Source: Amphiscolops sp. MND2022
Taxonomy: Eukaryota
Reading direction: 5' to 3'
DNA: 64,000 nt
NCBI GenBank assembly: GCA_964187785.1
Contig: OZ076409.1
Location: 3,474,001-3,538,000 of the forward strand
Under the pieces are notes generated by a model. It worked only from the letters and a program-made list of their open reading frames with translations. It searched no databases and was not told the DNA's origin. Each line of letters begins with the position of its first letter. The stretch's first letter is position 1. Positions 1 through 64,000 of this stretch are shown one piece after another. Made by a program: the position numbers and the translations under genes.

Positions 1-20
1 TTACAAGAGCTTCCACTAAA

Positions 21-8160: not shown

Positions 8161-8827
8161 AACAAATAATTGGGAAGATCATAGTGTCGTGATTTTGTGC
8201 ACTGTTATCAGAGTCTATTGAGCTTTGGCGGGACAATTGTCTGTTGTTTTCCTGGATAAAATACTTCCTAGGACCAATTTCCCATGATCTTTGTGCATTT
8301 CCTACTTCGGAGTTCCACTGTAGCCCACTGGACTTATGATCCCTTGAGACAAAATTGGATGAGATCGGGCTCTGGTGTGGCCCAACGGACGCTTGGTCCA
8401 TAGCGATGTAATTCACATTCCCATGTGTTCCTAATGTATTTTGGATGGAAGGAAGTACTGTCTCTGTCATTACACTGTTTATAGCTTCCTGTATTTGGGA
8501 ATTGAAGCTATTTTTGATCTCAATCAGTTTTCTTGACATTTGGTTGGAAATTTCCTCGCTAATCATTCTAGTAGTTTCAACAGTAATTTCACTATTTTCT
8601 CTACTATTGGTGTTGAGTAGCGATCTGAAGTTCTCTCCTAATACATTAGAATTTGGCTGAGGCCTGCTTGACCCAGAGTCAAAATTCACTTCATTTTCAC
8701 TAGCTATGTTCTCCTCCTCATCTCGTGAATAACTTCCTAACATTATATCAACATTTTCCACATCGGACAACATGTCTAATTGTCTAGAGCGACGCTCTTT
8801 AGCCTTTTGCTTTCTCGTGGAAGGCAT
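8060..8827 (-). pseudogene. N-terminal stub of a gag-like ORF starting inside the LTR
   Basis: ORF begins MPSTRKQKAKERRSRQ with a coiled-coil-like middle. It runs over the LTR end at 8185 (…QNHD), so the last ~40 aa come from flanking DNA. The gag identity is inferred from position. Confidence 0.5.
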
Positions 8828-9826: not shown

Positions 9827-11390
9827 AAAGTTCAAAATGAAAAACAGACCCGCATACGCGCTAAAGGTCTTAGGTCTTTTTCATTCTGACTCGCACGAAT
9901 CCCAGTCATACAATTTATTGAAATTGCACACATGGGCTAATTTTGGCCTTGTTTCTCTCATTCCAGCCATACGATTTTAATGCCATTGCACATAAGGACT
10001 CTAATATGGTGTAGAAGGACTGTACAAAATTTCGTTCCAATCGAATGGACAGTTTTTGCGAAAATCAGAAAAGCTCGAAAAATGGCTAGCTTTTGATCAT
10101 TTTGGGGTTAGTTTTGGCTATGTTTCGCGCATCCAAGACCGATGCACGTCCTCACAGGATTGGCTAGTGGATGGGTTGATGACGACAAATGTCTTAACGT
10201 TTCATTGTTCTCAATTCCGGACGATCACTTATTAGCAGCACTGCAATTCCCCCACTTGTTTCTCAGAGTAGCTACATCGAAAATCATGGAGGTAATGGAA
10301 ACAATTTTGTGTTTTCCTGCGTGTCGGCCGTGACATTTGATGTTTTAGAGTTTGGGAAAGTAGTATCTTTTGGCTGTTGAAGATTACCTTCTCACCTGAG
10401 AGTGGTAATGAGATTGTACTTGGGTACTTCTTGTTAAATGATAACTGTTACAGCTTTCAAACCTTTTCAAAATGGGTGAAAAAAAACTTTGCATGATTTT
10501 GGTGCGCTAAACAACGTCAATTGAATAGCTTTGGGGTTAATTGAACGTCTTCTGTTGAGTTTTGATGAGACTTACATTTCCATTTTCAACTTTGACATTT
10601 CAACCCCTTATCCTGCTCACACTCAAAGCATCATGTCAACGTCAGGTCAAGATACCTACAAGATATCTACAATAGCGCATTCTTATCGTCTATTCGAGTA
10701 CTTTCCACATGCATCCACTTCTAATCCTAGTTGTGTGGAAGTTTCTTCGGGAGGCCTGCAGTTGGAGAAAAATTGGAGTTGAAAAAGTTTTTTTTTGAAT
10801 ATGAAGTCTCGTAATTTTCCAACGGGGAATGGTGAAACGCTGAAACAATGGCAAAAGGACCGAATGGTCTCTCATTGGTACGAATTTGGGCAGAATTTAC
10901 CCATTTTAACTGTATTTTTGAAAAACTGGGTGAAATTTGAAGTCCAAAAAGGCTGACTTTTCAAACATTTTTGGGCTAACTTTAACTATGTTTCTCGCAT
11001 CCGAGTCATACAAATTTGATGCCATTTCACATTTAGGACTCTAATATAGTGCAGCATGACTGTAGAAACTTTCGTTCGAATCGTATAGACAGTTTTTGAG
11101 AGATTCGATTGAGAAATTCGAATAAAGTCCAAAAATTATTGTTTTTTGGCCTAGTCTAGGTTAGTTTTTGCTATGTTTCTCACATCGAAGCCATACGATT
11201 TTGACGCCATTGCACATATAGGACTCTAAGATGGTGTAGAATGACTGTAGGAAATTTAGTTCGAATCGCATGGACAGTTTTAGAGATAATACTCATGAGA
11301 CCCCTAGTTGTTATGTAGTTCCACTTTCTGTCTCGGTAAAGGGGCCCTACCACTCCTTCGGGGTGTTTCTTCGGGCATTTCACCACCCAC
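9827..11390. mobile_element. Head-less, divergent array-type unit ('Y') with internal ~120-190 bp repeats; its tail forms the first junction
   Basis: The block ...GCCATT(G/T)CACAT..AGGACTCTAA.AT.GTG...GACTGTA.AAA.TT.GTTC.AATCG.AT.GACAGTTTT occurs at ~9950-10060, ~10985-11100 and ~11170-11285. The segment ends in GGGGCCCTACCA...CCACCTAG like the array tails. Confidence 0.55.
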
Positions 11391-12778
11391 CTAGCTGAGG
11401 ACTGCGGGTGTCGTTGGAATGGATTCGTCATACGTCGTCGAAGGGCATGCCTCGGCATGCCCACAGACGGTGGGCGTTGGTATGAATGTGTGGAGTTGAC
11501 TAAGACGGTCAGTTGTTAATTTAAAAAGTGTGATTTCAGAACCACACTAGTCTGTGTAACGCTTCGCTGCTCCAGCTATAACATGGGCTTAATATTGATT
11601 TCAACTAACGGCCATGTATATGTCACAAGAAAGTTTGAGGAAAAACAACGGGAAAAAAACGAGAGAAACAATGTACTTTGTTGTTCATTTTTCTTTATCG
11701 ATAGCCTCCAAAGTTGACGCAAGGTCAACTTCGAAGGCTATCGGGGGCGATAGAGCTCATCAATTTCCATAAATTCAGCAAAACAAGCCAGTACGCTAGT
11801 TTTGAGATTGAAAAGTTTCAATTAAGTGGTCTTGAAATAGTGAAAAAGTCATTTTTACATTAATTTTTGGACCATTTCCGGTCACATTGGGTAACTTCCG
11901 GTCATGGGGGTAACTTCCGGGATATGCTAAAGATCTTCCGGGACTTCGGTTGTCTAACATTTTATCTTTGTACAGATTTGAATGCCTCATTAGGCCTCAA
12001 GATGTTGGCATTTTGGTGCACAAGGTCAAAAAGCGGTCACAAAAAGGGGGGTTGACCCCACTTCCGGTCATGATGATACCTCCAAGTGGCCAACATATTG
12101 TCACTGGGTTGTGATCAGGTTGTATTTCAATTTCGATATCCTGCTAGGAGTCCCTAAAACGACTGCCTAATAATGAAAAAGGCTAAATTCTGCCAAAAAA
12201 CACAAAAAAGTGTCATTTCCGGTCCAAGGGGGGGTTGGGGGTGAAAACCACACATGTCGTCAGATTGACCCCAATACGTACAACAAAACATCAGGAGGGT
12301 GCGGGTACGCTAAATCCTCGGCTTCATGCTCAAAATTGGCTATTTTGCAAATTTGGGGGGTAAAACTGGAGGGGGGAACCCTTCTATCTCGGTGGGGGGT
12401 GATCCGAATGCAACCAAAATTTTCCACCAATTGTATTTTGAGATGCTGCAACTAAGTGTAAAAGTGAACGAGAACGCTAGCATGCCCTGGAAAAAAGTTA
12501 TGACGACACTTCGGATATAACGTCTAAAAAGGACGTTATTTCCGGTTTTTCGGCCATAAGTCAACAAAAAACAATTTGCGGGGAAAATGACAGTAAGAAA
12601 AAGTTCTTAGAATTTCGAGTTATGGCCGCATGCAAAAAATTATCCAAATCCTACGGTTAGATTCCAAAATCGCCTCTAAAACACCCATGTAGGATACTAG
12701 TATTATATGAAATTATTCTACGTCGGCGCAGGACCCTCCCCGCGCCTCCTTGTGCGTTCTGGGGACCGCCCCAACCAC
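11391..12778 (-). mobile_element. Array unit Z (1388 bp), unique body with repeated (AC/AT)TTCCGG motifs
   Basis: Bounded by junction cores. Has the conserved head core, the GATAGCC hairpin (11699-11743) and a tail stem-loop. Confidence 0.8.
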
Positions 12779-14771
12779 CTAGCAGCTACCGCACAAGTGC
12801 GGGCGCGCATAGATTTGGCGCGCGTCGTCGAAAGGCATGCCTCGGCATGCCTACGGACTATGGGCGTTGTTTCCCTATGTGGCGTTGTAGTGACAAGACG
12901 CCGTAGGTATGTAGGCGCGCGGATTGTACCATCACCGCGAATAACTATGGAAACAGTTGTTTAAGTATTTCAACCAACCAAGTACTAGTATGAATTTTGC
13001 GCTAATGGCAGTACATTGTGATAGTTATCGAAAACAAACGACTGAAAATGTAAAGTCGTGTGAACCGAATACACGGACGGTGGTCGAAAATTGTGGAAGT
13101 ATAAGCGACCTGGTTTAACCAACTAACCGTAAGACGATCGTACCAAAAGACGTTAGGAACAAACAAACAAATCAGAATTTAGTTTATTTTAGTGATAGCC
13201 TTCTCAAGTTGACGCAGAAGGTCAACTTAGAAGGCTATCACGAGATTCAGTTAACAGGTACTTGAAAAATAATCAAAATCTGTCCAGCCAGGATCGTAGA
13301 AAGACTACATGTCAGCATTGTGATTGACATTTTCAATCATCTTGAGTCCTTAAGGTGGCGTTAGAAGTATTAAAAGAGTTTTAAAGCTAAACAATTGCAA
13401 TTCAATCTTAGCAAAATAGCGTATTTTTTAGCGTCTACTTTTTTTACTGCTACAGATATAAAACATGGGAAGGGATTTTTTTCTTGAAACATTAAAGTAG
13501 AGAGTTTCTGATCAACCACATGATTCATTTGTATTCTAGGAATTAAATTAGATATCAGAAAGTATTTTTTAATGTTTGCTTTTCGAGATATTTAACGAAA
13601 AGTTTTTGAAAAACACTAGTATATGAGAAAAAAGTGTCTCATACCACGCCTTGAGCAACCCGATTCCTTCAAAATCTTCATATTAGTGCTGAAACTTACC
13701 CTACGCATTCTGTCTACATAGTGATTGACAAAAAAGAGTAAATATTTGTTCAAATCAACTTTCACTGTAATCCAAGGCTTCCGCGATGTTTACATCAATT
13801 GAACAGTATTGTTGAAAAAACGTCTTATCACGGCTCATATGTTTTTGGAGCGACTGATACCAGTCTCAATGGTGTTGTTGAGTATCATTGGCCCTACTGG
13901 TTACGTCAGAGTGCATATTTGTGCTTCAAAAGCTGAATTTCAAATTTCGACCTGACGAAAAATGGGTTTTTGAGACGAAATTTTTCTAAGTTAAGTTCCG
14001 AATGTCTGAAAAATGTCTGAAGAACGGGTGAAAAGATTTTTTTAAAACTTTATATTTCTATAAATGGTTATTACGTTGCCAGTAGGACCGTTCGTGAGCA
14101 ATAAGACTATATCCGACATGCCTCGATGAAAATATGATGTTGTAAATGACCGATTTGTAAAACAAGACTATGTTGTGAAATCCTTGTGAAACACCTATGA
14201 CCTCGAAAAAATTTTTAATTTCAGATTCGATGCTAACTGTTGAGTCTCTGGCAGCGAGTAGATACTAACAGAAACCATGGATAGCAAGGATTCTAAATTA
14301 AATAAAATAAAAAAATTTTTCTGAGGTTATTTTGACATATATGGTACTGATAGTAGTGAAAAAAATTTAAAAATGTCAAATTTTCAAAAAATTTAAAAAC
14401 TCTGCATCTTTTGTGTTTAGTGCATTGCCATGGTCACGAAATGATGGTTCCGACCTTGTTTCACAGTCAACGTCCAAAAATTAATGCAATCAGAGATATT
14501 TCACAAAAATTGCCAAAATCACTATTTTTGATGAAAAACCAAAGATAAATTTTTCAAAAAGTCATATTAGTAACATTTGGAGAGCAAAACGTCAGCAGGA
14601 AAAAGTTCTTAGATTGGGCGATAGGGTACACACAGCAATTTTCAGAGAATTTGTATGGCTCAATTTTCTAAACTCACATAATTTGGTACCTTTTCTATGG
14701 TATTTTGCCTCGGCCAGGGCCCCTACCCCGGCCTGCAATTTTTTTTTGACTACGGGAAACCTACCGCCCAC
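12779..14771 (-). mobile_element. Array unit A, copy 1 (1993 bp)
   Basis: Head CTAGCAGCTACCGCACAAGTGCGG; tail GGGAAACCTACCGCCCAC. Confidence 0.85.
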
Positions 14772-16757
14772 CTAGCCGGGGAGCGCGGGCGTAGGCCCGC
14801 GGTATTCGGCATACGTCGTCGAAGGGCATGCCTCGGCATGCCCACAGACTGTGCACGTCGCAACACTATGTGGCGTTGTACAGTATGACAGAGAGCGTGG
14901 CTGTAGGAAGTTGATGGGCCTAATAACAGTAGAAAAAGAAAAACAAAAACGGTAAAGACTCAATTTTGAATAATTTGGATAAGTTTGATGTTTATTTTTA
15001 GCACAAAATTAATAAATATGACTTCGAGTTCATAGGTATTTATCAAAGACTGAATGCAATCGACAGGTGACTTAATGGAAGGTACTAACGGTAGTATAGA
15101 ATCACGAAATTATATATAGACTGTCATTTCCAATGAACAAAAAAAAATTTTTGTTGAAAATTTTTTGATGTGATAGCCTTCCCAAGTTGACACAAGGCCA
15201 ACTTAAAAGGCTATCACGAGATTCAGTTAACAGGTACTTGAATAATTTGCGAAAATTGTTCAGTCAGGATCGTTGAAAGACCATATGTCACCATTGTGAA
15301 TAGCAGTTTTGATCATTTTGGGTGCGTAAGGTTGCGTTAGAAGTGTTTAAAGAGTTTTTAGACACAATCATTGCGATTCTATATTAGCAAAAAAGCTTAT
15401 TTTTCAGTTTCGATTTTTATTCCTGCTACAAATGTAACACATGCGAAGGGAAATATTTCGGAAAACGAAAGAGATGAAAGTTTCTGATCAACCACAGTGT
15501 TCATCTATAATGTAACCTTTGAATAAAGTAGTTGAAAGTATTTTGTCAAGTTTGTATTTCCAGATATTGGGCTAAAAATTTTGGAAAATACAGTAGTATA
15601 TGGGACAAAATTGTCTCATACCACCCCTTGAGCAACTCGATACCTTCAAAAACCTCATTATAGTGCTGAAACGCACCCTACGCATTCTGTGCACATAGTG
15701 ATTGACAAAACTGAGTAAAATTTTGATGAAATCACATTTCACAGTGATCGCTGGCTTGCGAGATCTTTACCTCAATTGAGACGTATTGCTCAAAGTAACG
15801 TCTTATCGCGACTCATATGTTATTGGAGCCACTGATACCAGTGTCAATCGTTGTTTTGAGTATCATGGGCCCCATGGGTTACGTCAGAGTTAATAATTTT
15901 GCTTAAAAAGTTGAATTTGATTATTCGACCTGACAAAAAATGGGTATTTTGGTCGAAATTTTTCTAAGTTAAGTTCCGAATGACTGAAAAATGACTGAAG
16001 ACCGGGTGAAAATATATTTTTTAAAACTTTCTAATACTATAAATGGTTCCTACATTGCCAGTGAGACCGTTCTAGAACATTAAGGCTATAGCCGACAAGC
16101 TTCGATGGAAATAATGTGTTCAAAATGACCAATTTGTAAATTGATACTAAGTTGAGAAATCCTTGTGAAACACCTAAGACCTCCAAAAAAATTTTATTTT
16201 CACATTGGATGCAAACTGTTGAGCGTTTTGCAGCGAGTAGGTACTGACGGAAACCATGGATACCGAGGTTTCTAAATTTGAGCAAATAAAAAATTTTTTC
16301 AGAGGTGTTTTTGACATATAGTGTACTGATACTAGTGAAAAAAAATCAAAAACGTCGAATTTTCAAAAAATGTAAAAACTTTACATCTTTTGTGTTCAGT
16401 GCAATGCCACAGCCACGAAATGAAGGTTCCAAGCTTGTTTCACAGTCAATGTCCAAAAATTAACACCTTTTGAGTTATCAGCGACTTTGTTAAAAATTTC
16501 CTCATTTTACCCTTCTATGTGAGTGGAAATTGGGCCATAACTTTTTATATATTATTTCAATCGCTTAACGTCAGCAGGAACTTCGATTCGTATGGGCATT
16601 TCAGGGCCGCATGCACTCCAAGTCCAAAAAATTGTGGTTAGATTTAAAAATCGCGATTCTGTGTCGCCGTTTCCTACTAGATATTCTTTGCTATTTGACG
16701 TCCGGCAGGACCCAACCCGCCGGCCGTAATTTTTGTTGGGGAATTACCCCCGCCCAC
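14772..16757 (-). mobile_element. Array unit B, copy 1 (1986 bp)
   Basis: Head CTAGCCGGGGAGCGCGGGCGTAGGCCCGCG; tail GGGGAATTACCCCCGCCCAC. Confidence 0.85.
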
Positions 16758-18765
16758 CTAGCTGCTACCGCACTCCAGAGTGCGGGTAAGGCTTATTTGG
16801 CATACGTCTTCGAAGGGCATGCCTCGGCATGCCCACAGACGGTGGGCGTTGATGTTGGTATGTGGCGTTGTTATACAAATCACAGGGTCATGACATAGGC
16901 TCAGATCATGGGTGACGGAAGACTGATAGCGGAAGAGAAAACAAATGTGATAGTATTCAAAGGTCAGAAGTTGTTATTTATTATTTAGACATAAAATTAT
17001 TTACCAAATAATAAACAAAAATGTCTTCGAGTTCATAGGTATTTTTTCAAACTCTGCATGCTATCGTCAGCTGACATGATGGAAGATACTAACGGTAGTA
17101 TACAATCACGAAAATAGGCATCGACAGCAAAATCCGATTAACAAATGGTAGTTTTGTTTATAGTTTTTGGTGGTGATAGCCTTCCCAAGTTGACACAAGG
17201 TCAACTTAAAAGGCTATCACAAGATTCAGTTTAAAGCTACATGTAAAATTTTCAAAAAATGTGCAGTCTGGATTGTAGAAAGAGTACATGTGAGGACTGT
17301 GAACGGTATTTCTAATAATATTGGGTCCATAAGGTTGCGTTAGAAGTATTTAAAGGGTATTTAGGCTCAATCATCGCGTTTCTATCTTAGCAAAATAGCG
17401 TATTTTTTATCTTCTGCTTTCTCTTCTGCCATAAATGTAACCCATGCGAAGGTATTTTTTCGGAAAACAAAAAAAATTGAGAGGTTCTGATCAACCACAG
17501 TGTTCATTCATATTCTAACCTTAGAATAAAGTATTTGAAAGCATTTTGCGAAGTTAGGTTTTTGAGATAATGGGCTAAAAATTTTGGAAAATATAGTACT
17601 ATATGGGAAAAAAATGTCTCATACACACCCTTGAGCAGGCCGAGTACATCAAAAACCTCATTATAGTGCTGAAACTCATCCTACGCACTCTGTGCACATA
17701 GTGATTGACAAAAATGAGTAAATTTTTGATGAAATCACATTTCACAGTGATCGCTGGCTTGCGAGATCTTTACCTCAATTGAGACGTATTGCTCAAAATA
17801 ACGTCTTATCGCGACTCATATGTTATTGGAGCCATTGATACCAGTGTCAATCGTTGTTTTGAGTATCATAGGCCCCATGGGTTACGTCAGAGTTAATAAT
17901 TTTGCTTGAAAATCTTAATTTCATTTTTCGACCTGACAAAAAATGGGTATTTTGGTCGAAATTTTTCTAAGTTAAGTTCCGAATGACTGAAAAATGACTG
18001 AAGACTAGGTGAAAATATTTTTTTAAAACTTTCTATTGCTATAAATGGTTCCTACGTTGCCAGTAGGACCGTTCTAGAACATTAAGGCTATAGCCGACAA
18101 GCCTCGATGAAAATATTGTGTTCAAAATGACCAACTTGTAAATTAAAACTAAGTTGTAAAATCCATGTGAAACGCTTATGACCCAAAAAAAATTTTTTAT
18201 TTTCACATTGGATGCAAACTGTTGGGTGTTTGGCTGCGAGTAGGTTCCGACAGTAACCATGGATACCAAGGTTTCCAATTTAAAGCAAATAAAAATTTTT
18301 TTATGATGTGTTTTTGACATATGGGGTACTGATAGTAGTGAAAAAAATTTCAAAAATCTCGAATTTTCGAAAAATGTAAAAACTTTACATCTTTTGTGTT
18401 CAGTGCAATGCCACAGCCACGAAATGAAGGTTCCAAGCTTGTTTCACAGTCAAAGTCCAAAAATTAACACATTTTGAGATATTAAGTGAAAAATTAGAAA
18501 TTTCCCAAAAATGTTGAAATTTTGAACAAAAAATTGGCCATAACTTTTTATAAAGTTTATAGAACGCTTAGCGTCAGCAGGAACTTCGTCTTGCAATAGG
18601 ATTTGAGGGCCGCATGCAAAAAATGAGCAAATTCTAATGGTTAGATTAAATTTTAGGTCTTTTTTTTGCAATTTCTGCTACATACCGCTAGCTTAAGGCG
18701 GATCGTCGGCCGCCAGGACCCTACCCGTCGGCCGAATACAAACGGGGTGAAATTTCCCCGCCCAC
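16758..18765 (-). mobile_element. Array unit C, copy 1 (2008 bp)
   Basis: Head CTAGCTGCTACCGCACTCCAGAGTGCGGGTAAG; tail CGGGGTGAAATTTCCCCGCCCAC. Confidence 0.85.
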
Positions 18766-20741
18766 CTAGCTGCTACCGCGGTAGTGACCTCGCAGGGGCG
18801 AATTTGCCATACGTCGTCGAAGGGCATGCCTCGGCATGCCCACAGACGGTGGGCGTCGGAACGCTATGTGGCGTTGTACTACTAACACTGCGAGGCCGCA
18901 CGCGATTGGTGTGGCTGATAACGGTAACGAATGTGAAAGTTAGAGTTTTTTAAGTTGGTAATAAAATAAAATTCTACTTTTGGAAAAAAAAACGATAAAA
19001 AATGTTTTTGATTTCATAGGTTTTTATCGAAAACTGAATGCAATTGTTATCTGACCTGCTGGATGGTACTAACGGTGGGATATAATCACGAAGTTAATCA
19101 TCAACAGCATTGTCTTATAAACGAGAAGTATTTTTGTTCATAGTTTTTTGTGGTGATAGCCTTGCCAAGTTGACACAAGGCCAACTTGAAAGTCTATCAC
19201 AAGAATCAGTTGACAGCTACATGTAAAATGTGCTAAAGTTGTGCATCCTGGAACGTAGAAAAAGCTAATGTGCGCATTGTAAACGGTTTTTTCAATCATT
19301 TTGAGTACGTAAGAGGGCGTTAGAAGTATTTAAAGATATATTGGTTACAATACTTGTAATTCTATCTTAGCAAAATAGCGTATTTTTTAGCTTCAGCTTT
19401 TTTTAATGCTACAAATGGGACACATGCGAAGGAATATTTATTGAAAAACATAAGAGTTGAGAGTTTCTGATCAACCACAATGTTCAATTATATTCTAAGA
19501 AGTGAATTAAGTATCGGAAAGTATTTTTTAGGTTTGCTTTGTGAGATATTGGGCGAAAAGTTATTCAAAAAAGCAGTAGTATATGAGACAAAAGTGTCTC
19601 ATACCACGCCTTGAGCAACCCGATTCCTTCAAAATCCTCATAGTAGTGCTGAAACTCACCGTACGCATTCTGTGTACATAGTGATTGACAAAAAAGAATA
19701 AATTTTTGTTCAAATCAACATTCACTGTGATTCAAGGGTTCCGAGATGTTTACTTCATATGAACAGTTTTGTTAAAAATAACGTCTTATCGCGGCTCATA
19801 TGTTATTGGAGCCACTGATACCAGTCTCAATGGTGTTGTTGAGTATCATTGGCCCCACTGGTTACGTCAGAGTGCATATTTGTGCTTCAAAAGCTGAATT
19901 TCAAATTTCGACCTGACGAAAAATGGGTTTTTGAGACGAAATTTTTCTAAGTTAAGTTCCGAATGACTGAAAAATGACTGAAGACCGGGTGAAAATATTT
20001 TTTTTAAACTTTCTATTACTATAAATGGTTCCTACGTTGCCAGTGGGACCGTTCTAGAACATTAAGGCTATAGCCGACAAGCCTCGATGAAAATCTTGTG
20101 TTCAAAATGACCTTTTTGTAAATTATTACTAAGTTGAGAAATCCTTGTGAAACGCTTATGACTCAGAAAAAATTTTTATTTTAACATTGGATGCAAACTG
20201 TTGGGTGTTTGGCTGCGAGTAGGTTCCGACAGAAACCATGGATACCAAGGTTTCCAAGTTAAAGCAAATAAAAATTTTTTTCTGAGGTGTTTTTGACATA
20301 TATGGTACTGATAGTAGTGAAAAAAATTTCAAAAATGTCAAATTTTCAAAAAATGTAAAAACTTTACATCTTTTGTGTTCAGTGCAATGTCACAGCCACG
20401 AAATGAAGGTTCCAAGCTTGTTTCACAGTCAATGTCCAAAAATTATTGCATTTTGAGATATTTGCCCTTTTATGAAAAATTTCATCATTTTTACATCTAA
20501 TGGGGACCAAAAATTGGCCATAACTTTTTTTATAATGTTTTTTGGGCTTAACGTCAGCAGGAACTTCGTCTCGTATGGGCAAATTAGGGCCGCATGCAAA
20601 AAATGAGAAGAATCGTACGGTTAGATTTTAAAATCGGCTGTTGAGGGTGTGCTTTTTCTTATAAGCGTTAGCTGTTTTGGGAGTTCGCGGCAGGACCCTA
20701 CCCGCCGCTCTAGTTTTTTTTGGGGTGAAATCCCCGCCCAC
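18766..20741 (-). mobile_element. Array unit D (1976 bp)
   Basis: Head CTAGCTGCTACCGCGGTAGTGACC; tail GCGGCAGGACCCTACCCGCCGCTCTAG...CCCCGCCCAC. Confidence 0.85.
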
Positions 20742-52076: not shown

Positions 52077-54076
52077 CTAGCTGCTACCGCACTCCAGAGT
52101 GCGGGAGAAGGCTCATTTGGCATACGTCGTCGAAGGGCATGCCTCGGCATGCCCACAGACTATGGGCGTCGGAACGCTATGTGACGCGGCGTTGTAATAA
52201 GGACATACATTGCAAGGACGTAGGGGATGGCTGGGGATGATAACGGTAGAAAAGATAGAAGGTATACTTCCTAGTGGTTTCAATTAGGTTTTTTTAATTA
52301 TTTGTTATTACTTTTTGTAAAGAAAAAAAATGAAAATTGTATTCAAGTTCATAGGTTCTTATCAAACACTGAAAGCAATCGTTAGCTGACCTGATGAAAG
52401 GATCTAACGATAGGATCAAATGACGAAAATAGGCATCGACAGCAAAATCCAATAAACACACGGTAGTTTTGTTTATAGTTTTTTGTGGTGATAGCCTTCC
52501 CAAGTTGACACAAGGCCAACTTGAAAGGCTATCACAAGATTCAGTGTAAAGCTACATGTAAAATTTTCAAAAATTATGCAGTCTGGATTGTAGAAAGAAA
52601 ACATGTGAGGACTGTGAACGGTATTTCCAATCATATTGGATCCATAATGTTGCGTTAGAAGTATTTAAAGAGTATTTAGGCACAATCATCGCGTTTCTAT
52701 CTTAGCAAAATAGCGTATTTTTTAGCTTCTGCTTTTTCTTCTGCCATAAATGTAACCCATGCGAAGGTATTATTTCGGAAAACAAAAAAACTGAGAGGTT
52801 CTGATCAACCACAGTGTTCATCCATATTCTAAACTTAGAATAAAGTAATTGAAAGCAATTTGCGAAGGTAGGTTTTTGAGATAATGGGCTAAAAATTTAG
52901 GAAATGCAGTACTATATGGGAAAAAAATGTCTCATACACCCCCTTGAGCAGGCCGATTACTTCAAAAACCTCATTATAGTGCTGAAACTCATCCTATGCA
53001 CTCTGTGTACATAGTAATTGACAAAAATGTGTAAACTTTTGGTGATCTCACATTTCACTGTGATCCCAGGCTTCCGACATGTTTACTCCGATTTAGAGGT
53101 TTTGCTCTGAATAACGTCTTATCGCGAGTCATATGTTATTGAAGCCACTGATACCAGTCCCACTTGTGTTTTTGAGTATTATGGGCCCCACTGGTTACGT
53201 CAGAGTAAATAATTTTACTTCAATAGTTGAATTTGAATTTTCGACCTGACACAAAATGGGTTTTTGTGTCGAAATTTTTCTAACTTAAGTTCCGAATGAC
53301 TGAAAAATGACTGAAGACCGGGTGAAAATAATTTTTTAAAACTTTTTATTACTATAAATGGTTCCTACGTTGCCAGTGGGACCGTTCTATAACATTAAGA
53401 CTATAGCCGACAAGCCTCGATGACAATATTGTGTTCAAAATGACCAATTTGTAATTTAAAACCAAGTTGAGAAATCCTTGTGAAACACCTAAGACCTCGA
53501 AAAAAATTTTAAATTCACACTGAATGCAAACTGTTGGGTGTTTGGCAGCGAGTAGGTTCCGACAGAAACCATGGATACCAAGGTTTCCAATTTAAAGCAA
53601 ACAAAAATTTTTTTCTGATGTGTTTTTGACATAGGGGTACTGATAGTAGTGAAAAAAAATTCAAAAATCTCGATTTTTCGAAAAATGTAAAAACATTACA
53701 TCTTTTGTGTTCAGTGCAATGCCACAGCCACGAAATGAAGGTTCCAAGCTTGTTTCACAGTCAAAGTCCAAAAATTAACACATTTCGAGATATTAGGTGA
53801 AAAATTAGAAATTTCCCAAAATTATTGAAATTTTGAACAAAAAATTGGCCATAACTTTTTATAAAGTTTATAGAACGCTTAGCGTCAGCAGGAACTTCGT
53901 CTTGCAATAGGATTTGAGGGCCGCATGCAAATTTTGAGCAAATTCTTATGGTTAGATTAAATTTTAGGTCTTTTTTTTGCAATTTCTGCTACATACCGCT
54001 AGCTTAAGGCGGATCGTCGGCCGCCAGGACCCTACCCGTCGGCCGAATACAAACGGGGTGAAATTTCCCCGCCCAC
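52077..54076 (-). mobile_element. Array unit G' (2000 bp), diverged G subtype
   Basis: Head CTAGCTGCTACCGCACTCCAGAGTGCGGGAGAAG; G-like body; C-type tail. Confidence 0.8.
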
Positions 54077-56074
54077 CTAGCCGCTACCGCACTCCAGAGT
54101 GCGGGATAAGCTCGTTTGGCATACGTCGTCGAAGGGCATGCCTCGGCATGCCCACAGACTATGGGCGTCGGAACGCTATGTGACGCGACGTTGTAATAAG
54201 GACATACATTGCGAGGACGTTGGGGATGGCTGGAGATGATAACGGTCGAAAAGATTGAAGTTATACTTCCTAGTGGTTTTAATTAGGTTTTTTAAATTAT
54301 TTGTTTTTATTTTTTGTAAACAAAAAAAAAGAGAATTGACTTCAAGTTCATACATTCTTATCAAACACTGAAAGCAATCGTTAGCTGACCTGATGGAAGG
54401 ATCTAACGATAGGATCGAATTACGAAAATAGGCATCGACAGCAAAGTCAAATTAACAAATGGTAATTTTGTTTATAGTTTTTTGTGGTGATAGCCTTCCC
54501 AAGTTGACACAAGGCCAACTTAAAAGGCTATCACAAGATTCAGTTCAAAGCTACATGTAAAACTTTCAAAAAAAGTGCAGTCTGGATTGTAGAAAGAGTT
54601 TATGTGAGGACTGTGAACGGTATTTCCAATCATATTGGATCCATAAGGTTGCGTTAGAAGTATTTAAAGGGTATTTAGGCACAATCATCGCGTTTCTATC
54701 TTAGCAAAATAGCGTATTTTTTATCTTCTGCTTTCTTTTCTGCCATAAATGTAACCCATGCGAAGGTATTATTTCAGTAAAAAAAAAATGAGAGGTTCTG
54801 ATCAACCACAGTGTTCATTCATATTCTAACCTTAGAATAAAGTAATTGAAAGCATTTTGCGAAGTTAGGTTTTTGAGATAATGGGCTAAAAATTTTGGAA
54901 AATACAGTACTATATGGGAAAAAAATGTCTCATACACCCCCTTGAGCAGGCCGATTACTTCAAAAACCTCATTATAGTGCTGAAACTCATCCTATGCACT
55001 CTGTGTACATAGTAATTGACAAAAATATGTAAACTTTTGGTGATCTCACATTTCACTGTGATCCCAGGCTTCCGAGATGTTTACTCCGATTTAGAGGTTT
55101 TGCTCTAAATAACGTCTTATCCCGACTCATATGTTATTGGAGCCACTGGTATCAGTCCCAACGGTGTTTTTGAGTATCATTAGCCCCACTGGTTACGTCA
55201 GAGTAAAAAATTTTGCTTCAAGTGCTGAAATTCAAATTTCGACTTCACCAAAAATGGGTATTCGAGACGAAAATTTTCTAAGTTAAGTTCCGAATGACTG
55301 AAAAATGACTGAAGACCGGGTGAAATTTTTTTTTAAAACTTTCTATTACTATAAATGGTTCCTACGTTGCCAGTGGGACCGTTCTATAACATTAAGACTA
55401 TAGCCGACAAGCCTCGATGAAAATATTGTGTTCAAAATGACCAATATGTAAATTAAAACCAAGTTGAGAAATCCTTGTGAAACACCTAAGACCTCGAAAA
55501 AAATTTTAAATTCACACTGGATGCAAACTGTTGGGTGTTTGGCAGCGAGTAGGTTCCGACAGAAACCATGGATACCAAGGTTTCCAATTTGAAGCAAATA
55601 AAAATTTTTTTCTGATGTGTTTTTGACATATGGGGTACTGATAGTAGTGAAAAAAATTTCAAAAATCTCGAATTTTCGAAAAATGTAAAAACTTTACATC
55701 TTTTGTGTTCAGTGCAATGCCACAGCCACGAAATGAAGGTTCCAAGCTTGTTTCACAGTCAAAGTCCAAAAATTAACACATTTTGAGATATTAAGTGAAA
55801 AATTAGAAATTTCCCAAAAATGTTGAAATTTTGAACAAAAAATTGGCCATAACTTTTTATAAAGTTTATAGAACGCTTAGCGTCAGCAGGAACTTCGTCT
55901 TGCAATAGGATTTGAGGGCCGCATGCAAATTTTGAGCAAATTCTAATGGTTAGATTAAATTTTAGGTCTTTTTTTTGCAATTTCTGCTACATACCGCTAG
56001 CTTAAGGCGGATCGTCGGCCGCCAGGACCCTACCCGTCGGCCGAATACAAACGGGGTGAAATTTCCCCGCCCAC
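54077..56074 (-). mobile_element. Array unit G, copy 3 (1998 bp)
   Basis: Near-identical by eye to G copies 1 and 2. Confidence 0.85.
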
Positions 56075-59000
56075 CTAGCCGCTACCGCAATCGGGTGTAG
56101 ATATAAAAAGTAGTTGGCATACGTCGTCGAAGGGCATGCCTCGGCATGCCCACAGACGGTGGGAGTCGGAACGCTATGTGGCGTTGTAAAATGAAGACAA
56201 GCGAGAGACATGGTAAGGTGCTTGTTATGATGGATGATAAAAGTAGAAGATACCGAAATCAAAACAAAGTATCAATTTTCATAAAAAAAATTTTAAAAAA
56301 TATTAATCGGTTGTGATTTGGAAACGCTAAAGACGTGTTTATGTATTTAAACTCTTCGCGAATGCAAAATTTGGATGACAGTCATTTGGCAAACGTACAT
56401 TCCCAGAGAAGGGGATAGAATGAATGTACTTAATGGCATAAAAAAATAGGAAAAACAAAGACTTGTGAGTAAATTTTATCATAATAGATCGAAAACTTCC
56501 ATCATGTACACTAAGCTAATGCCACCAAAGGAACCCACGCATACATGCTCGAATCCAAAATACTGCAATTTCTGAACGCTTTCCACGCCATTATTCATAT
56601 AATAATTAGTTTCGCACTATTATGGTCAAAAATTGAACTATCCTCTAAAGATCATAAATCAACGTCATCTTCAGATAAAGGTAAGTTCTACACGTTATTT
56701 ATTTTAACTAAAATGATGCATTCCACATTCATTCCTTTACTATCTTGGTTGTGTAGACGTTTCATGATTTTGGAAGGCGGGGAAGTTTTGAGACAACATG
56801 TAATCTTCCTGTCATACCTTTGTTCACTGGGTAATACAGTCGAACTTAACTGCGAAAAATATGTATGTCTTATGGTTTTGTTCTGCAGAAATAAAAGGTG
56901 AAGCAAAAAATCTTGAAGTTATTAGAAGAATAATTATTCTTTCATCATTTCAGCTGTTACAGTAAGTGTTACAAAAGATAGAAAGATCTAAGTTTTTAGT
57001 TTTTGAAAAGTACATTCTCATCTCCCCGATAGGGAGATGGAATGTACTTAAGTGTTTTTTGTTATCGAATTGTTAAGATTGAAGTTGATTGGACGTATTC
57101 CATTGACTTTTCGATGAAACTTGGAATCCATTTACGTATTATCACATCTCAACCTTTTATGAAGCTCACATTCAAAAAACATCAAGTATATATTTTTTTG
57201 CTAATTTAGAATATTAGACAGGGTATATATGTGGAATGATTCACTTCTTATATTGAACATATTATGGTTTTCTTCAGAATAAAATTGGTCTTTTTAATTA
57301 TCGCCCAATGTTAATAACTTGTTTGGTATACTCTGAAAGTCATATGGAAATGATAGAACCCCAAGAAGCTGGGGTTTTGATGAATATCTGACATTTTAAT
57401 AATTAGGGTCAATTTTTCCGTGTGATTTTGGCCCATATTAGGAGGGTTTAAAAGTTATAAATATTCATCAAAAGTTATTCTAAGCAAACTTCTGGTAATC
57501 TACAAAAAGAGTAGAGTTGATTGGTATGTGATAGTTTTCTGTGCTATTGTTATACGCCAAATGGCGTGCATTTGAAGTTTTTTAGGAAATGATATGTTTT
57601 TCTTCCTCAAAAAAATCGGCTTTCCTAAATTTTGCTCAAAAACGCGCAAAACCTGGTTTGGCATACTCTGTGAGCCATGTGGAGTTGATAGAACCTCAAG
57701 AAGCTGTGGTTTTGATGATTTTTAGACATTTTAAAATTTTAGGGTCAATTTTTTTGTGTAATTTTAGCCCATTTTCGGAGGGTTCAAAATTTTTTATTAT
57801 CCATCAAAATTCATTCAAAGCAAAGTTCTAATAATCTACAATAGGAGTAGAGTTGATCGGTATATGATAGTTTTCTGTGCTATTCTTATACGCCAAATGG
57901 CGTGCATGTGAATTTTTTTAGGAAATGTTATGTTTTTCTTTCCCAAAAATGTCGGCTTTTCCACATATTGCTCAAAAACGGGTAAAACCTGTTTTAGCGT
58001 ACTCTGTGGACCATGTGGAGTTGATAGAACCCCAAGAAGCTGTGGTTTTGATGATTTTTCGACATTTTTATTTTTTAAGGACAATTTTTTCGTGTAATAT
58101 TTGCCCACTTTTGGAGGATTTATATTTTTTTATTATCCGTCTAATTTTCATTTAAACTAACTTCTAATCATCTACAATGAAAGTAGAGTTGATCGGTATG
58201 TGATAGTTTTCTGTGCTATTCTCATACGGCAAATGGCGTGCATTTGAAATATTTTAGGAAATGGTATGTTTTTCTTTCCCAAAAATGTCGGCTTTTTCAC
58301 ATATTGCTCAAAAACGGGTAAAACCTGTTTTAGCGTACTCTGTGGACCACGTGGAGTTGATAGAACCCCAAGAAGCTGTGGTTTTGATGATTTTTTGACA
58401 TTTTAAAATTTTAAGGTCAATTTTTTCGTGTAATTTTGGTCCATTTTTGGAGGGTTCAAAATTTTTAAATATTCTTCAAAATTCAATCAAAACAAAATTC
58501 TAATAGTCTACAATGGGAGTAGAGTTGATCGGTATATGATAGTTTTCTGTGCTATTCTTATACGTCAAATGGAGTGCATTTGAAATTTTTTAGGAAATGG
58601 TATGATTTTTAGGATTTTCGTCAAAAAAGTTTGCTTTTTAAATTTATTTAAATTGAAAAGATACGGGGTTATTACACATGTCTTATAATCAACTTTTTGA
58701 GCGGAAGCCAATGGTGCCTTCGAAAAAATTATTTATCAGCTAACATTTTTAGTACTGCCAAAATAACCAAAAAAGGAAACAATTTTTTCTTGATTTTGCG
58801 ATTTGTTCATCCGGACATGGTCCAAACACCAATACTAGCATTCTTCGATCATAGTAATTGTTCTAACAATTCACCACAACCTTAAGAAACAATTCAAAGA
58901 GATTTTGAATATTAACTTCGTGTGACAAAGGGTTGAAATATTTGAAGAAGTTAGTAGAAAAGAGGAAGTTTTTGCCTTATACAACACCTTGAGCAACCGA

Positions 59001-60840
59001 TATTACGGTAGAACCTCATTTCACGACTGAAACTAACACAACGGGTTCTGTGTATTAAGTGATTGACGAAAAAGAAATATTTTTTGATGAAATCACTTCT
59101 CACGGTGATTCAAGGCTTTCAACATGTTTACTTCAGAATGAGAGTTATTGTGTTAAAAACATACAGTCGCATCTCATATGTTATTAGAGCATATGGTGAT
59201 AGTCTTTTTGTTGTTGTTGAGTATTTTGGGCCCAACGGTTTGCTTCAGAGTGAAAAGTATTGCTTCCAAAACCAAATTTGAATTTGCGACCTGACAATAA
59301 TGGGTTTCCGAGAAAAAAATTTAAAACCTAAGTGTTAGTAAATAGACCTCGATCTTATTTATTGCGAATGTCAGCATTGTTAATGGTGTTTTCGAACTTC
59401 TTGGGTAAAAAAGTGGCGTCAGAAGTTGTTGAAACGTTTTTGTTTTGCATCATTGGAAGTCTGTCCGTCCAAATTTTTGATTTTTGGAGCTACTGGTATT
59501 TTTCCTGCCACTAATGTAACACATGCAAGGCAGTTTTTTTCTAAAAACAAAATAGTTAATAGTTCCTGATCAACCACAGTGTTCATCTATATTCTAAGCT
59601 TCGAATAGAGTAACTGAAAGTATTTTGTCAAGTTAGTTTTTCCAGATAATGGGCTAAAATTTTTGGAAAATACAGTAGTATATGGGAAAAAAATGTCTCA
59701 TACCACCCTTTGAGCAACCCGAATCCTTCAAAAACCTCATTATAGTGCTGAAACTCACCCTACGCACTCTGTGCACATAGTAATTGGCGAAAATGGGTAA
59801 CTTTTTGATGAAATCACATTTCACAGAGATCCCTGGCTTGCGAGATGTTTACCTCAATTGAGACGTATGGCTAAAAATAACGTCTTATCGCGACTCATAT
59901 GTTATTTGAGCCAATGGTACCAACCCCAATCGTTGTTTTGAGTATCATGGGCCCCACTGGTTACGTCAGAGTTAGTAATTTTGCTCAAAAAGCTGAATTT
60001 GAGTTTTCGACCTGACAAAAAATGGGTTTTTGAGACGAAATTTTTCTAAGATAAGTTCCGAATGTCTGAAAAATGATGGAAGAACGGATGAAAATTTTTT
60101 TTATAACTTTGTATTTCTATAAATGGTAAACACGTTGCCAGTAGGACCGTTCGTAAGCAATAAGACTCTATCCGACATGCCTCGATGGAAATATGATGTT
60201 GAAAATGACCAATTTGTAATATGAAACTAAGTTGTGAAATCCTTGTGAAACACCTATGACCTCGAAAAAAAATTTAAATTCACATTGGATGCAAACTGTT
60301 GAGTGTTTGGCTGCGAGTAGGTTCCGACAGAAACCATGGATACCAAGGTTTCTAATTTTAAGCAAATAAAAATTTTTTTCTGAGGTGTTTTTGTCACATT
60401 GGTTACATATAGTAGTGAAACCCGAGTCAATTTGGTCAAATTTTTGGAAAATGTAAAAGTTTTAGATCTTTTGGGTCTAGTGCATTGCTAGGGCAAAGAA
60501 TCGAAGGTTTAAACCAGTGATAGGTCGATTGTCACAAGTTTTTCAATTTTTTGCATTCGAGCTGTTTGTAAAATTTTTCTCAAAAATACCTCAAAATTCG
60601 CACCAAAAAGTGGCTATATCTCGTTACACAATGAAACCATCGCTTAACGTCAGCAGGAACTTCGTCTTGTATGCCCAAATTAGGGCCGCATGCAAAAAAT
60701 GGTACAAATCCTATGGTTCAAAAAAAAGTTCGGTGCCGGAAAAATTTTCTCTAGTATATAGCGCCGTAAGCTTGGTAAATAGAAGCTCCCGACAGGACCC
60801 TACCCGCGGTCGCAAAAAAAGTGGAGATATATCCCCCCAC
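56075..60840 (-). mobile_element. Array unit F, subtype 2, copy b (4766 bp)
   Basis: Very similar to 32072-36839. Confidence 0.85.
57265..58615. repeat. About 4 x 336-bp tandem repeat inside F2b
   Basis: Anchor at ~57510, 57846, 58183 and 58519. Confidence 0.85.
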
Positions 60841-63800
60841 CTAGCCGCTACCGCAATCGGGTGTAGATATAAAATGTATTTGGTATACGTCGTCGAAGGG
60901 CATGCCTCGGCATGCCCACAGACGGTGGGCGTTGGTAACAGTATGTGGCGTTGTACAAATGACGACAGAGGAGAGACATGGTAAGGTGTTATGTATGATG
61001 GACGATAAAGGTAGAAGGCACCAAAACCAAAACCATTATCAATTTTGATAAAAATAAAAATGTTATTCGGTTGTGATTTGAAAACGCTAAACACATGTTG
61101 ATGCAGTTAAACTTGTCGGGGTTGCGCGAAATTTGGATGATAGTCATTTGGCAAACGTACATTCCCATAGAAGGGGATAGAATGAATATACTTAACGGCA
61201 TAAAAAAACTAAGAAAAACAAAGACTTGTGAGTAAATTTGATCATAATATCTCGATTATATCCGTCATGTACACTAAGCTAATGCCACCAAAGGAACCCA
61301 CGCATACATGCTCGAAACAAGCATGCTGTCTTTTCTGAACACTTTCCAGGGTGTTATTCATATAATATTTACTATTCCACTAATGTGATCACATATTGAA
61401 CTATCCTTAAAAGATCATAGGACAACTTCATCTTGGGGTAAAAACAAGTTCTAATTGTTTTTTATCCCATGTAATAAGGTGCATTCAGCAATCATTCTTT
61501 TGCTATCTTGGTTGTTTGGGCGTTTTATGATTTTGGAAGGCCGGAAAGTTTTGAAACAACTTGTGAACTTCCTCAGTCATACCTTTGTTCACAGAGTATT
61601 ACAATCGAACCTAACTGCGGCAAATGTGTCTTTTGGTTTTGTTCTTCAGAAATAGAAGCTGAAGCAAAAATTCATGAAGGTACTAGAAGCATTCTTATTC
61701 TTTCATCGTTTCAACAGTTACATAAAATGTTAGAAGAGATTCAAAATTCGAAGTTTTTGGCTTTTGAAAAGTACATTCTCATCTCCCCCGATGGGGAGAT
61801 GGAATGTACTCAAGTGTTTCTTGTTATCTAATGGTTAAGATTGAAGTTGATTGGATGTATTCCATTGAGATTTCGATGAAACGTAGGGTCCATTTACGTA
61901 TTATTACATCTCAACCTTTTATGAAGCTCACGTTCAAAAAACATCAAGTTTAAAAGTTATCGCTAATTTGAAAATATTAGACCGGGTATATATGTGGAAT
62001 GATTCCCTTCTTATATGGCACATATTATGGTGTTCTTGCCAAAAAGTCGGTTTTTTAAATACTGCTCAAAAGATTGTCAATACCTGGTTTGATACACTCT
62101 GAAGGTCGTATGGAGTTGAGAGACGCTGTGGTTTGGACGATTTTTTTGACATTTTAAAATTTTAGAGTCAATTTTTCGTGTCCTTTTGGCCCATTTTTGG
62201 AGGGTTTAAAATTTTTTCATATCCATCATATTTTATTCTAAACAAAATTCTGATAATCTACAATGGAAGTAGAGTTGATCGGTATGTCATAGTTTTCTGT
62301 GCTTTCCTCATACGGCAAATGGCGTGCATTTGAAATTTTTTAGGAAATGGTATGTTTTTCTTTCCAAAAAATGTCGGCTTTTTCACATATTGCTCAAAAA
62401 CGGGTAAAACTTGTTTTTGCATACTCTGTGGACCACGTGGAGTTGATAGAACCCCAAGAAGCTGTGGTTTGGATGATTTTTCGACATTTTAAAATTTTAA
62501 GGTCCATTTTTTCGTGTCATTTTGGCCCATTTTTGGAGGGTTTAAATTTTTTTCATATCCATCAAATTTTATTCTAAACAAAGTTCTGATAGTCTACAAT
62601 GGAAGTAGAGTTGATCGGTATGTAATAGTTTTCTGTGCTATTCTCATACGGCAAATGGCGTGCATTTGAAATTTTTTAGGATATGGTATGTTTTTCTTTC
62701 CCAAAAATGTCGGCTTTTTAACATATTGCTCAAAAACGGGTAAAACTTGTTTTTGCATACTCTGTGGACAACGTGGATTTGATAGAACCCCAAGAAGCTG
62801 TGGTTTGGATGATTTTTTGACATTTTAAAATTTTTAGGTCAATTTTATCGTGTAATTCTGGCCCATTTTTGGAGGGTTTAAAAAAATTAAATATCCATCA
62901 AAACTCATTTTAAACTAAATTCGGTTCATCTACAACAAAAGTAGAGTTGATCGGTATGTGATAGTTTTCTGTGCTATTCTCATACGGCAAATGGCGTGCA
63001 TTTGAATTTTTTTAGGAAATGGTATGTTTTTCTTTTCCAAAAATGTCGGCTTTTTCACAAATTGCTCAAAAACGGGTAAAACTTTTTTTTATCATACTCT
63101 GTGGACCACGTGGAGTTGATAGAACCCCAAGAAGCTATAATTTTGATGATTTTTTGACATTTTAAAATTTTAAGGTCAATTTTTTCGTGTAATTTTGTCC
63201 CATTTTCGGAGGGTTCAAAAATTTTTAATATCCATCAAAATTCATTCTAAACAAAAGTCTAATATTCTACACTGGGAGTAGAGTTGATCGGTATATGATA
63301 GTTTTCTGTGCTATTCTTATATGTCATATGGTGTGCATTTGAAATTTTTTAGGAAATGGTATGATTTTTATGACTTTGGTCAAAAAAGTTGGCTTTTTAA
63401 AAATATTTAAATTGAAAAGATATGGGGTTATTACACAAGTCATATACCTAACTTTTTGAGAGGAATCCAATGGTGCCATCGAAAAAATAATTTTTTGGCT
63501 AACATTTTAAGTACTGCCAAAATAACCAAAAAAAGGAAAAAAATTTTCATGATTTTGCAAATTTTTCATCCGGAAATGGTCCAAACACCAATATTAGCAT
63601 TCTTCGATCATAGTTTTTGTTCCAACACTTCACCCCAACCTAAAGAAACAATTCAAAGAGATTTTGAATATTAACTTCTGGTGACAAAGGGTTGAAATAT
63701 TTGAAGGTGTTAGTAGAAAAGAGGAAGTTTTTGTCGTTTACAACACCTTGAGCAACCCATATTACGGTAGAACCTCATTTCACGGCTGAAACTAACACAA

Positions 63801-64000
63801 CGTGTTCTGTGTATAAAGTGATTGACGAAAAAGAAATATTTTTTGATGAAATTGCTTTTCACGGTGATTCAAGGCTTTCAACATGTTTACTTCGGATGAG
63901 AGTTTTTGTGTTAAAAACCTACTGTCGCATCTCATATGTTATTAGGGCATATGGTAACAGTCTTTTTGTTGTTTTTGAGTAATTTGGGCCCAGCGGTTTG
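60841..64000 (-). mobile_element. Array unit F, subtype 3, cut by the window end
   Basis: F head; body colinear with F1 and F2 but diverged from both. Confidence 0.8.
62025..63370. repeat. About 4 x 336-bp tandem repeat inside F3
   Basis: Anchor at ~62269, 62605, 62941 and 63278. Confidence 0.85.

Follow-up and report, generated by a model that had tools for sequence, protein, structure and literature searches.

A stretch of 64,000 nucleotides from the genome of Amphiscolops sp. MND2022 (C1:3,474,001-3,538,000, on contig OZ076409.1; hereafter, the window) contains more than 52 kb of short units arranged head to tail, without spacers and in one orientation. With a probability of about 0.62, this array is a same-orientation pile of non-autonomous Helitron-like transposons of many families, in which a Rep protein inserts units at the end joints of resident copies. 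A 13.7-kb element present in the same type of array, or a relative of it, probably supplies this enzyme in trans. The genome searched comprises 1.07 Gb in 1929 contigs, and the unit order is the one given in assembly GCA_964187785.1. As canonical orientation, the sense of the Rep (transposase) is used, which corresponds to the - strand of the window; the + strand is the complementary one.

Organisation of the array

The motif CCACCTAGC is found 23 times in the window, from 11387 to 60837 and on the + strand only, compared with a mean of 0.15 and a maximum of 2 in shuffled sequences (0 of 100 shuffles reach 23). Cutting at this motif gives 22 complete units and one clipped by the window end, which fall into size classes of 1.28, 1.39, ~2.0 and 4.77 kb, with a length spread within families of at most ~14 bp. 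At all 23 aligned joints, the tail of one unit leads through the motif directly into the head of the next, with zero spacer, in agreement with a first-pass annotation of this DNA that described same-orientation, spacer-free units delimited by one motif. The array start that it gave, 11387, has to be corrected, as the preceding 240 nt are the tail of a further unit. On the other side, the array reaches ~51 kb past the window, adding up to 44 complete units and ~104 kb in a single orientation, and in the 124 kb read there are 0 reverse motifs and 0 reverse heads. The units had also been described as non-coding, which is correct as far as tested: only three open reading frames (ORFs) of at least 150 amino acids (aa) overlap the array in the window, a Pfam search of the six longest window ORFs, those of the array included, gave no match, and neither did a tRNA scan and an Rfam scan of the window. 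The features are the following, with window coordinates, the strand in parentheses and the family letters of the first-pass annotation:

11387..64000 (-): array of 23 non-autonomous Helitron-like units, head to tail, from the motif count, the cutting and the reading beyond the window
11150..11394 (-): terminal part of a further unit before Z, with the GGGGCCCTACC box and ending in CCACCTAG; the window contains no conserved head that belongs to this unit
11395..12782 (-): unit 1 (Z), 1388 bp
12783..14775 (-): unit 2 (A), 1993 bp, with 15 other full-length 99% copies in the genome
14776..16761 (-): unit 3 (B), 1986 bp, with a 1995-nt 100% twin 80 kb away among other neighbours
16762..18769 (-): unit 4 (C), 2008 bp
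18770..20745 (-): unit 5 (D), 1976 bp
20746..22022 (-): unit 6 (E), 1277 bp
22023..24027 (-): unit 7 (C), 2005 bp
24028..28798 (-): unit 8 (F), 4771 bp, with 79% identity to the 2-kb units in its last 1.25 kb
25212..26592 (no strand): ~335-bp internal repeats in unit 8
28799..30076 (-): unit 9 (E), 1278 bp
30077..32075 (-): unit 10 (G), 1999 bp, 100% identical to unit 18, with a different downstream neighbour
32076..36843 (-): unit 11 (F), 4768 bp
36844..38828 (-): unit 12 (B), 1985 bp
38829..40839 (-): unit 13 (C), 2011 bp
40840..42837 (-): unit 14 (C), 1998 bp
42838..44831 (-): unit 15 (A), 1994 bp
44832..46811 (-): unit 16 (H, which clusters with D), 1980 bp
46812..48087 (-): unit 17 (E), 1276 bp, with a 100% twin 57 kb away among other neighbours
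48088..50086 (-): unit 18 (G), 1999 bp
50087..52080 (-): unit 19 (A), 1994 bp
52081..54080 (-): unit 20 (G'), 2000 bp
54081..56078 (-): unit 21 (G), 1998 bp
56079..60844 (-): unit 22 (F), 4766 bp
60845..64000 (-): unit 23 (F-like), clipped by the window end, 4761 bp when whole
16754..16762 (-): example of a joint, G-CTAG/GTGG on the - strand, in which the 3' end CTAG is followed by the GTGG of the next unit
16768..16785 (-): hairpin of 7 bp specific to the family (CCGCACT/AGTGCGG), which in canonical orientation precedes the 3'-terminal CTAG by 6 nt
16796..16870 (-): conserved ~75-nt block TTTGGCATACGTCGTCGAAGGGCATGCC-TC-GGCATGCCC...GGTGGGCG of the canonical 3'-terminal region, present in all window families
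18706..18735 (-): hairpin with covarying stem and conserved loop AGGACCCTACCC, canonical 5'-terminal region
18744..18759 (-): short G4/C4 hairpin GGGGTGAAATTTCCCC, 2 nt from the joint motif, as read from the letters, unfolded

The first-pass annotation counted about nine families with unrelated bodies. This description fits E and Z, which, like one 2.8-kb unit outside the window, have nothing but their ends in common with the rest, but it does not fit the others: mutual coverage among the 2-kb classes A, B, C, D, G and H amounts to 68-100% of their length, and F, which also contains the ~335-bp internal repeats, shares 1.25 kb at 79% identity with the 3' part of the 2-kb units. Clustering of the 44 units at 93% results in 19 families, and most units are 1-8% different from their relatives. 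Written in cluster labels, which are not the letters of the list, the order is ABCDEFDGFHIJDDBEFHBHHIKLMDNHOPEDMDHICQHFRDIS. Five neighbour pairs are repeated in it, compared with 4.06 in 20,000 shuffles (P = 0.37), and no triplet is, an adjacency test that agrees with the earlier description of a shuffled order with varying neighbours. The only multi-unit block with at least 97% identity in the 124 kb relates units 10-11 to units 21-22 (6.9 kb, 98.6%), and recent multi-unit duplications were rejected as the source of the order, since this block is the only one of its kind. The periodic or block-wise order of satellites with higher-order repeats is therefore not seen in these pairs, triplets and blocks.

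Units are copied individually, and this is best seen in three identical pairs. Units 3 and 37 are identical over 1995 nt, a tract that includes both bordering motifs and 1 nt beyond each of them; their left flanks are unrelated, and their right flanks differ from the second base past the motif. Units 17 and 40 share 1302 identical nt among different neighbours. The 2172-nt tract common to units 10 and 18 enters a shared upstream family on one side and stops 1 nt past the right motif on the other, where one copy is followed by an F head and the other by an A head. Identical tracts end no further than 1 nt from the motif when they lie beside a unit of a different family; elsewhere, they continue into a similar tail for 18 or 165 nt. 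Unit A has 15 further full-length copies with 99% identity on C1, C2, C3, C6, C10 and three small contigs, and their flanking partial matches reveal differing neighbours on at least five chromosomes. Because the identical units and the copies of unit A have different neighbours, the earlier proposal of independent units that are exchanged whole at one fixed joint stands.

Joints, termini and the Rep-bearing element

On the + strand, the tail of a unit consists of a GGACCCTACCC box, a short G/C hairpin and CCACCTAG, and the next unit opens with 30-45 family-specific nt, which are followed by the common block TTTGGCATACGTCGTCGAAGGGCATGCC-TC-GGCATGCCC...GGTGGGCGTTG. Read on the - strand, every window unit begins with GTGG and ends with CTAG, and a CTGG end occurs in one family of 3.07 kb. 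The canonical layout is composed of 5'-GTGG, a conserved architecture of ~230 nt with the hairpin loop GGGTAGGGTCCT, the body, a conserved block of ~75-110 nt, a GC hairpin specific to the family in about half of the families, and CTAG-3'.

The 3.07-kb family reveals to which unit the variable base belongs. On the + strand, CACCCAG stands before it in all of the 100 joints listed, out of 143 in total. After the tail of this family, the joint reads CCCAG in 62 of 62 listed cases that lead into its own head, and in the 38 that lead into other sequence, with at least 15 different heads, it reads CCTAG (34), CCAAG (3) or CCCAG (1). The base found after a given tail thus depends on which unit comes next, so that the terminal base has to be assigned to that unit: CTAG or CTGG is its own 3' end, and the variable base goes along with the unit that lies downstream on the + strand. 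Such an end matches the typical 3' end of Helitrons, described as CTRR (PMC11417382).

The 5'-side architecture of ~230 nt is common to all families, the autonomous elements included. Its loop AGGACCCTACCC is constant while the stem covaries (GGCGC/GCGCC, CCGGC/GCCGG, GCGGC/GCCGC, GGATTC/GAATCC, GGGCG/CGCCC and others), with a mean stem of 5.62 compared with 4.61 after swapping the halves (a value as high as that observed is found in 0 of 200 swaps). Near the 3' end, families A, B, C and E have a GC hairpin of 5-7 bp, 6-7 nt before CTAG; H folds weakly, and Z, D, F and the autonomous element give no convincing 3' fold. The two ends also share a short inverted match, CCACC(GCG)/GGTGG(GCG), which is absent from some families and, with its 5-8 nt, is too weak to claim terminal inverted repeats of the Helitron2 type.

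A scan of the genome with the Helitron Rep domain detected 152 matches. One class of Rep ORFs is ~2375-2386 aa long, and five copies of it were examined (ORFs of 2376-2380 aa). In all five, the ORF lies within an array unit that starts right after CCACCTAG and ends with [CG]CACCTAG, after which the head of another unit follows, and it is antisense to the + motif. The Rep-bearing unit is 13,684 bp long in the copy that was measured. Its 2377-aa protein contains Helitron_like_N (aa 1030-1127) with the HUH motif QHYHILF at 1123, the YxxxY motif RYLTSY at 1294, PIF1 (aa 1771-1907) and a C-terminal GIY-YIG nuclease domain; the Pfam match of the latter falls slightly short of the cut-off in P0004 and exceeds it in the relatives P0009 and P0017 (81% and 34% identity). 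A longer unit with the same joints that codes for a Rep/helicase, which the first-pass annotation had recommended searching for, is thus present in the genome, and its suggestion of an enzyme supplied in trans gains support from this element, which has a Rep (HUH, YxxxY) with PIF1 and lies in the same arrays and joint frame.

The autonomous element has a second gene, ORF2, of 389 aa (L022:1223-2389, - strand), with lengths of 335 and 277 aa in two copies. A Pfam search of the 389-aa product gave no match. In an Atlas search, the best match and another set of clusters are without a named family, and the nearest clusters with one are the OB-fold binders of single-stranded DNA POT1, CDC24, CTC1 and MEIOB/RPA. 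As a lead from sequence comparison, ORF2 may be OB-fold-like, which would be in line with the RPA-like gene that Helitrons often carry. On C1 and C4, arrays also contain Rep ORFs of 2545 aa, which are antisense to the local heads.

The genome contains a second, unrelated Rep class (L009-L020), with ORFs of 456-1327 aa, 8 of 12 longer than 1000 aa. As this class matches the whole Helitron_like_N profile (E = 5e-58), the genome also holds more conventional Helitrons.

Genomic distribution, insertion sites and mechanism

The conserved head motif is found 4535 times in the genome with up to two mismatches, and among 100 listed places 97 are in arrays and 3 are isolated. The largest block is an internal domain of ~6 Mb at C1:70.45-76.46 Mb (of 104 Mb), where the heads listed (44, 78 and 37 in three listings) all lie on the - strand and the 16 Rep ORFs listed (1216-2386 aa) all on the + strand. 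This domain may represent a region of heterochromatic or centromere-like nature that these elements have built up. Many arrays are situated no more than a few Mb from contig ends, at 3.5 Mb of C1 (the window), 102-103.9 of 103.9 Mb of C2, 2.4-3.1 Mb of C3, 0.26 Mb of C9, 2.6 Mb of C13 and 71.5 of 75 Mb of C6. Elsewhere, single families form runs: of 100 listed joints that follow the 3.07-kb tail, 62 open into the same family, and the 1.28-kb family runs at C1:38.14 Mb. The first-pass annotation had argued that a rolling circle gives runs of one family only, an argument that is not supported, as the same group of elements gives both runs and mosaics. Outside this genome, a metagenome scan with the head motif found one environmental contig of 1172 bp (L047), which has one joint, with tail box, conserved head and CACCTCG; it shows that the group of elements occurs elsewhere, and nothing further.

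Insertions into unique DNA were studied at seven canonical 3'-side edges (the eight-unit array L042-44, L039, L040, L041, L045, L046 and the autonomous copy on C6) and three 5'-side edges (L042-44, L040 and L041). The unique DNA after the 3' end has G as its first base in 6 of 7 cases and T as the next in 6 of 7, and the unique DNA before the 5' end reads CTNG in 3 of 3. With such flanks, the empty target looks like CTNG^GT, a likely copy of the joint CTAG^GTGG. The presence of CTNGGT at both ends of solo copies is compatible with mimicry of the target or with its duplication.

These features can be accommodated in a mechanism of the "peel and paste" type. Rep would nick single-stranded DNA at CTRG^GTGG, and one unit would be displaced from joint to joint and circularised, with a CTAG/GTGG joint of its own. 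The circle would then be pasted into a joint-like site, CTNG^GT. Resident copies would offer the best such site in their end joint, to which Rep is probably also recruited by the terminal hairpins. Since each insertion would produce two new joints, arrays would grow as same-orientation, spacer-free and near-random mosaics. When the stop at a joint is missed, two or more units would be copied, which would lead to the single-family runs of the 3.07-kb and 1.28-kb families and to occasional multi-unit blocks. The GIY-YIG domain might nick the second strand, a role that has been proposed for the endonuclease of Helentrons (PMC4067079).

Several observations weigh against this account. The elements coding for the 2377-aa and 2380-aa proteins do not have the ~110-nt 3' block that all window units carry, and what they share with these units is limited to the architecture of the 5' side and [CG]CACCTAG at the terminus; because of the missing block, the real mobiliser of the window units may be another autonomous family, with the Rep families of 2545 and 2603 aa as candidates. 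By BLAST, the 13.7-kb element has no similarity to 7 of the 9 unit types and only 90-160 nt in the other two, so that an origin of the units as its deletion derivatives was rejected. The 3' hairpin holds as a universal feature in part only, being clear in ~4-5 of the 9 families folded, with z < -3 in one. The ends also lack the marks of HLE1, namely a 5'-TC start and A^T insertion, as the units start with GTGG and the flanks read CTNG (3/3) and G and T (6/7 each). Two insertions have the same non-consensus variant on both sides, CAAG/CAAG (ACCAAG) in the solo copy L040 and CCAG/CCAG (CCACCCAG) in unit 2 of L041, and of the two explanations, coincidence or duplication of the target, a target-site duplication would be the simpler. 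Lastly, hundreds of thousands of copies of a bare CTNGGT are estimated for the unique DNA from base composition; that arrays dominate although the site is so common implies either recruitment to resident ends or substantial amplification in place.

The last point leads to an explanation without targeted insertion, in which unequal crossover and gene conversion would have rearranged rolling-circle concatemers, or a few insertions that lay side by side by chance, where they stood. The homology of 200-350 nt around the joint, which is common to all families along with the conserved head and tail architecture, would put every breakpoint there; single-family runs are common (the 3.07-kb joints and the 1.28-kb runs above), one two-unit block of 6.9 kb has been duplicated within the array, and full-unit gene conversion could be an alternative source of the identical units. 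Crossover, however, duplicates or deletes contiguous blocks only, which leaves 19 families in random order with no repeated triplet unexplained, and 99% copies of one unit lie among different neighbours on at least five chromosomes. Moreover, Rep-coding units share the joint frame, and solo copies and array edges stop exactly at the motif in joint-like unique DNA, for which reasons shuffling in place is considered unlikely, though it deserves serious attention. The two-sided variants of L040 and L041 unit 2, together with the fusion of GIY-YIG to RepHel, suggest yet another origin of the joint, as the duplicate of a hexamer produced by a targeted, staggered GIY-YIG cut at CTNGGT rather than as the end of an element. 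In such a case the variable base would not be expected to follow the family, as it does in 100 of 100 listed joints of the 3.07-kb family, or to switch with the next unit after the same tail (62/62 versus 34/38); furthermore, unit 1 of L041 has CCTAG at its outer flank and CCCAG at its inner joint. Duplication of a cut target is thus an improbable source of the joints.

Two further possibilities are of much smaller weight. Repeats of 2 kb with 97-100% identity are hard to assemble, and the region might have been joined in a false order, but differences of 1-8% separate most units from their relatives, many loci and contigs have arrays of the same grammar, and the joints are base-perfect, all of which makes an assembly artefact very improbable. 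The kinship with integrons put forward by the first-pass annotation, that is, a tyrosine recombinase integrating circular cassettes at an att-like core, would account for one short core per joint, one orientation, whole-unit exchange and folded ends. Still, the whole genome has 4 weak Phage_integrase (PF00589) matches, none of them in the arrays read, the coding units of the arrays encode an HUH Rep/helicase, and the cassettes are gene-free and inserted at many positions instead of at one attI-like array end, so that this kinship had to be given up as scarcely credible. Targeted insertion of Helitron-like units at resident joints accordingly remains the preferred explanation.

Some features lie beside these main subjects. 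At the right edge of the array (window-equivalent 113889-117100, L037/L038), there are three older units of ~1.05 kb that are 82-85% alike and have no conserved head, and the joint between the second and the third is degraded. Left of the array, long ORFs are located at 3-1607 (+) and 8060-8845 (-). The first is a 534-aa frame, open at the window start and without a Pfam family, for which a homologue search found three relatives without a named function (55-81% identity). At C3:2,083,091-2,085,292, three partial Phage_integrase matches, 993 bp apart, share one open frame of 1055 aa, ~280 kb from the nearest listed array place on C3.

Relation to known systems and significance

Two features support a place among the Helitron-like elements: the enzyme, as the autonomous copies in the same arrays encode a RepHel protein in their 2377-aa ORF, and the CTRR end. 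Both groups have a Rep (HUH, YxxxY) with PIF1, an apparently OB-fold-like second gene, the CTRR end, a hairpin in several families and abundant non-autonomous copies. Tandem arrays of Helitrons have been reported in Myotis and Bombyx, as well as unrelated Helitrons side by side in bat and maize (PMC4067079), and concatemer arrays in Arabidopsis (PMC11934779); such tandem arrays have been ascribed to a bypass of the stop signal (PMC4067079, PMC11934779, PMC12001565). The arrays described here differ in being many-family mosaics of random order with one base-perfect joint, which extend up to megabases. Insertion has been described as A^T for HLE1 and T^T for HLE2 (PMC11417382), whereas here the 5' end is GTGG instead of TC, the apparent target CTNG^GT, and the protein has a C-terminal GIY-YIG nuclease. 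The HLE2 marks, terminal inverted repeats of 8-16 nt and T^T, are likewise absent, the inverted match being 5-8 nt long and the target a different one.

With Helitron2/Helentron and the HINE/DINE-1 elements, the units share hairpins at both ends, internal tandem repeats in some units and an extra nuclease on RepHel. For Helitron2, a reversed RepHel and hairpins at either end have been described (PMC3627910), as have the terminal features of Helentrons (PMC3627910, PMC4067079). The nuclease of Helentrons is an AP endonuclease and their sites are T-rich, in contrast to the GIY-YIG and CTNG^GT found here; a GIY-YIG is noted once, for an HLE2 family of the moss Sphagnum, in the account of PMC11417382. 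The ~335-bp repeats of the 4.77-kb units (window 25212-26592) resemble the central repeats of Helentron-type non-autonomous elements.

Orientation-locked Helitron domains at chromosome ends have been reported in Paramecium and in the cnidarians Hydractinia and Nematostella (PMC13085455, PMC11934779). The present arrays share with them an absolute orientation bias, an ORF orientation that varies relative to the element, a proposed specific integration and, for many arrays, a position near contig ends. They differ in their apparent target, their own end joint instead of the telomeric repeats proposed there, in not being one-subfamily arrays, and in the internal position of the largest block.

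In bacteria, the HUH transposase of IS91/ISCR elements, which has no fused helicase, inserts beside a short target that resembles the sequence at the end of replication, and missed termination gives products with several copies. In working mode, this would be the closest analogy, and IS91/ISCR elements are not known to form many-family arrays. Integrons share the exchange of whole units at one short core, a single orientation and, probably, recognition of folded single-stranded ends. They differ from the present arrays, which have no attI platform or promoter, consist of non-coding cassettes and could be entered at any joint; neither IntI with a single attI nor promoterless gene cassettes with attC are found, and the integron label is an analogy only.

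A narrow search of the literature found no description of random-order, many-family Helitron arrays, of a target that mimics the joint or of 5'-GTGG...CTRG-3' ends, which leaves their absence from it unproven. The usual account of Helitron arrays is a missed stop that yields runs of one element, in contrast to the many families interleaved here at one joint, and the element adds a defined example of the RepHel-GIY-YIG architecture. More tentatively, and with somewhat less than even confidence, a lineage with Rep/PIF1-GIY-YIG may have become truly site-specific for its own joint, CTRG^GTGG, such that any two-module unit can be circularised and re-integrated at any joint. It would be a eukaryotic, HUH-driven counterpart of cassette arrays, building same-polarity domains of up to ~6 Mb that maybe serve as heterochromatic or subtelomeric structures or compete with them. 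If the elements indeed home to each other's ends, this would be a simple route to megabase repeat domains of single polarity that leaves genes unharmed, and CTRG^GTGG would be a natural, sequence-defined nick site of a Rep. It would also offer a possible path from a transposon to a satellite-like chromosome structure.

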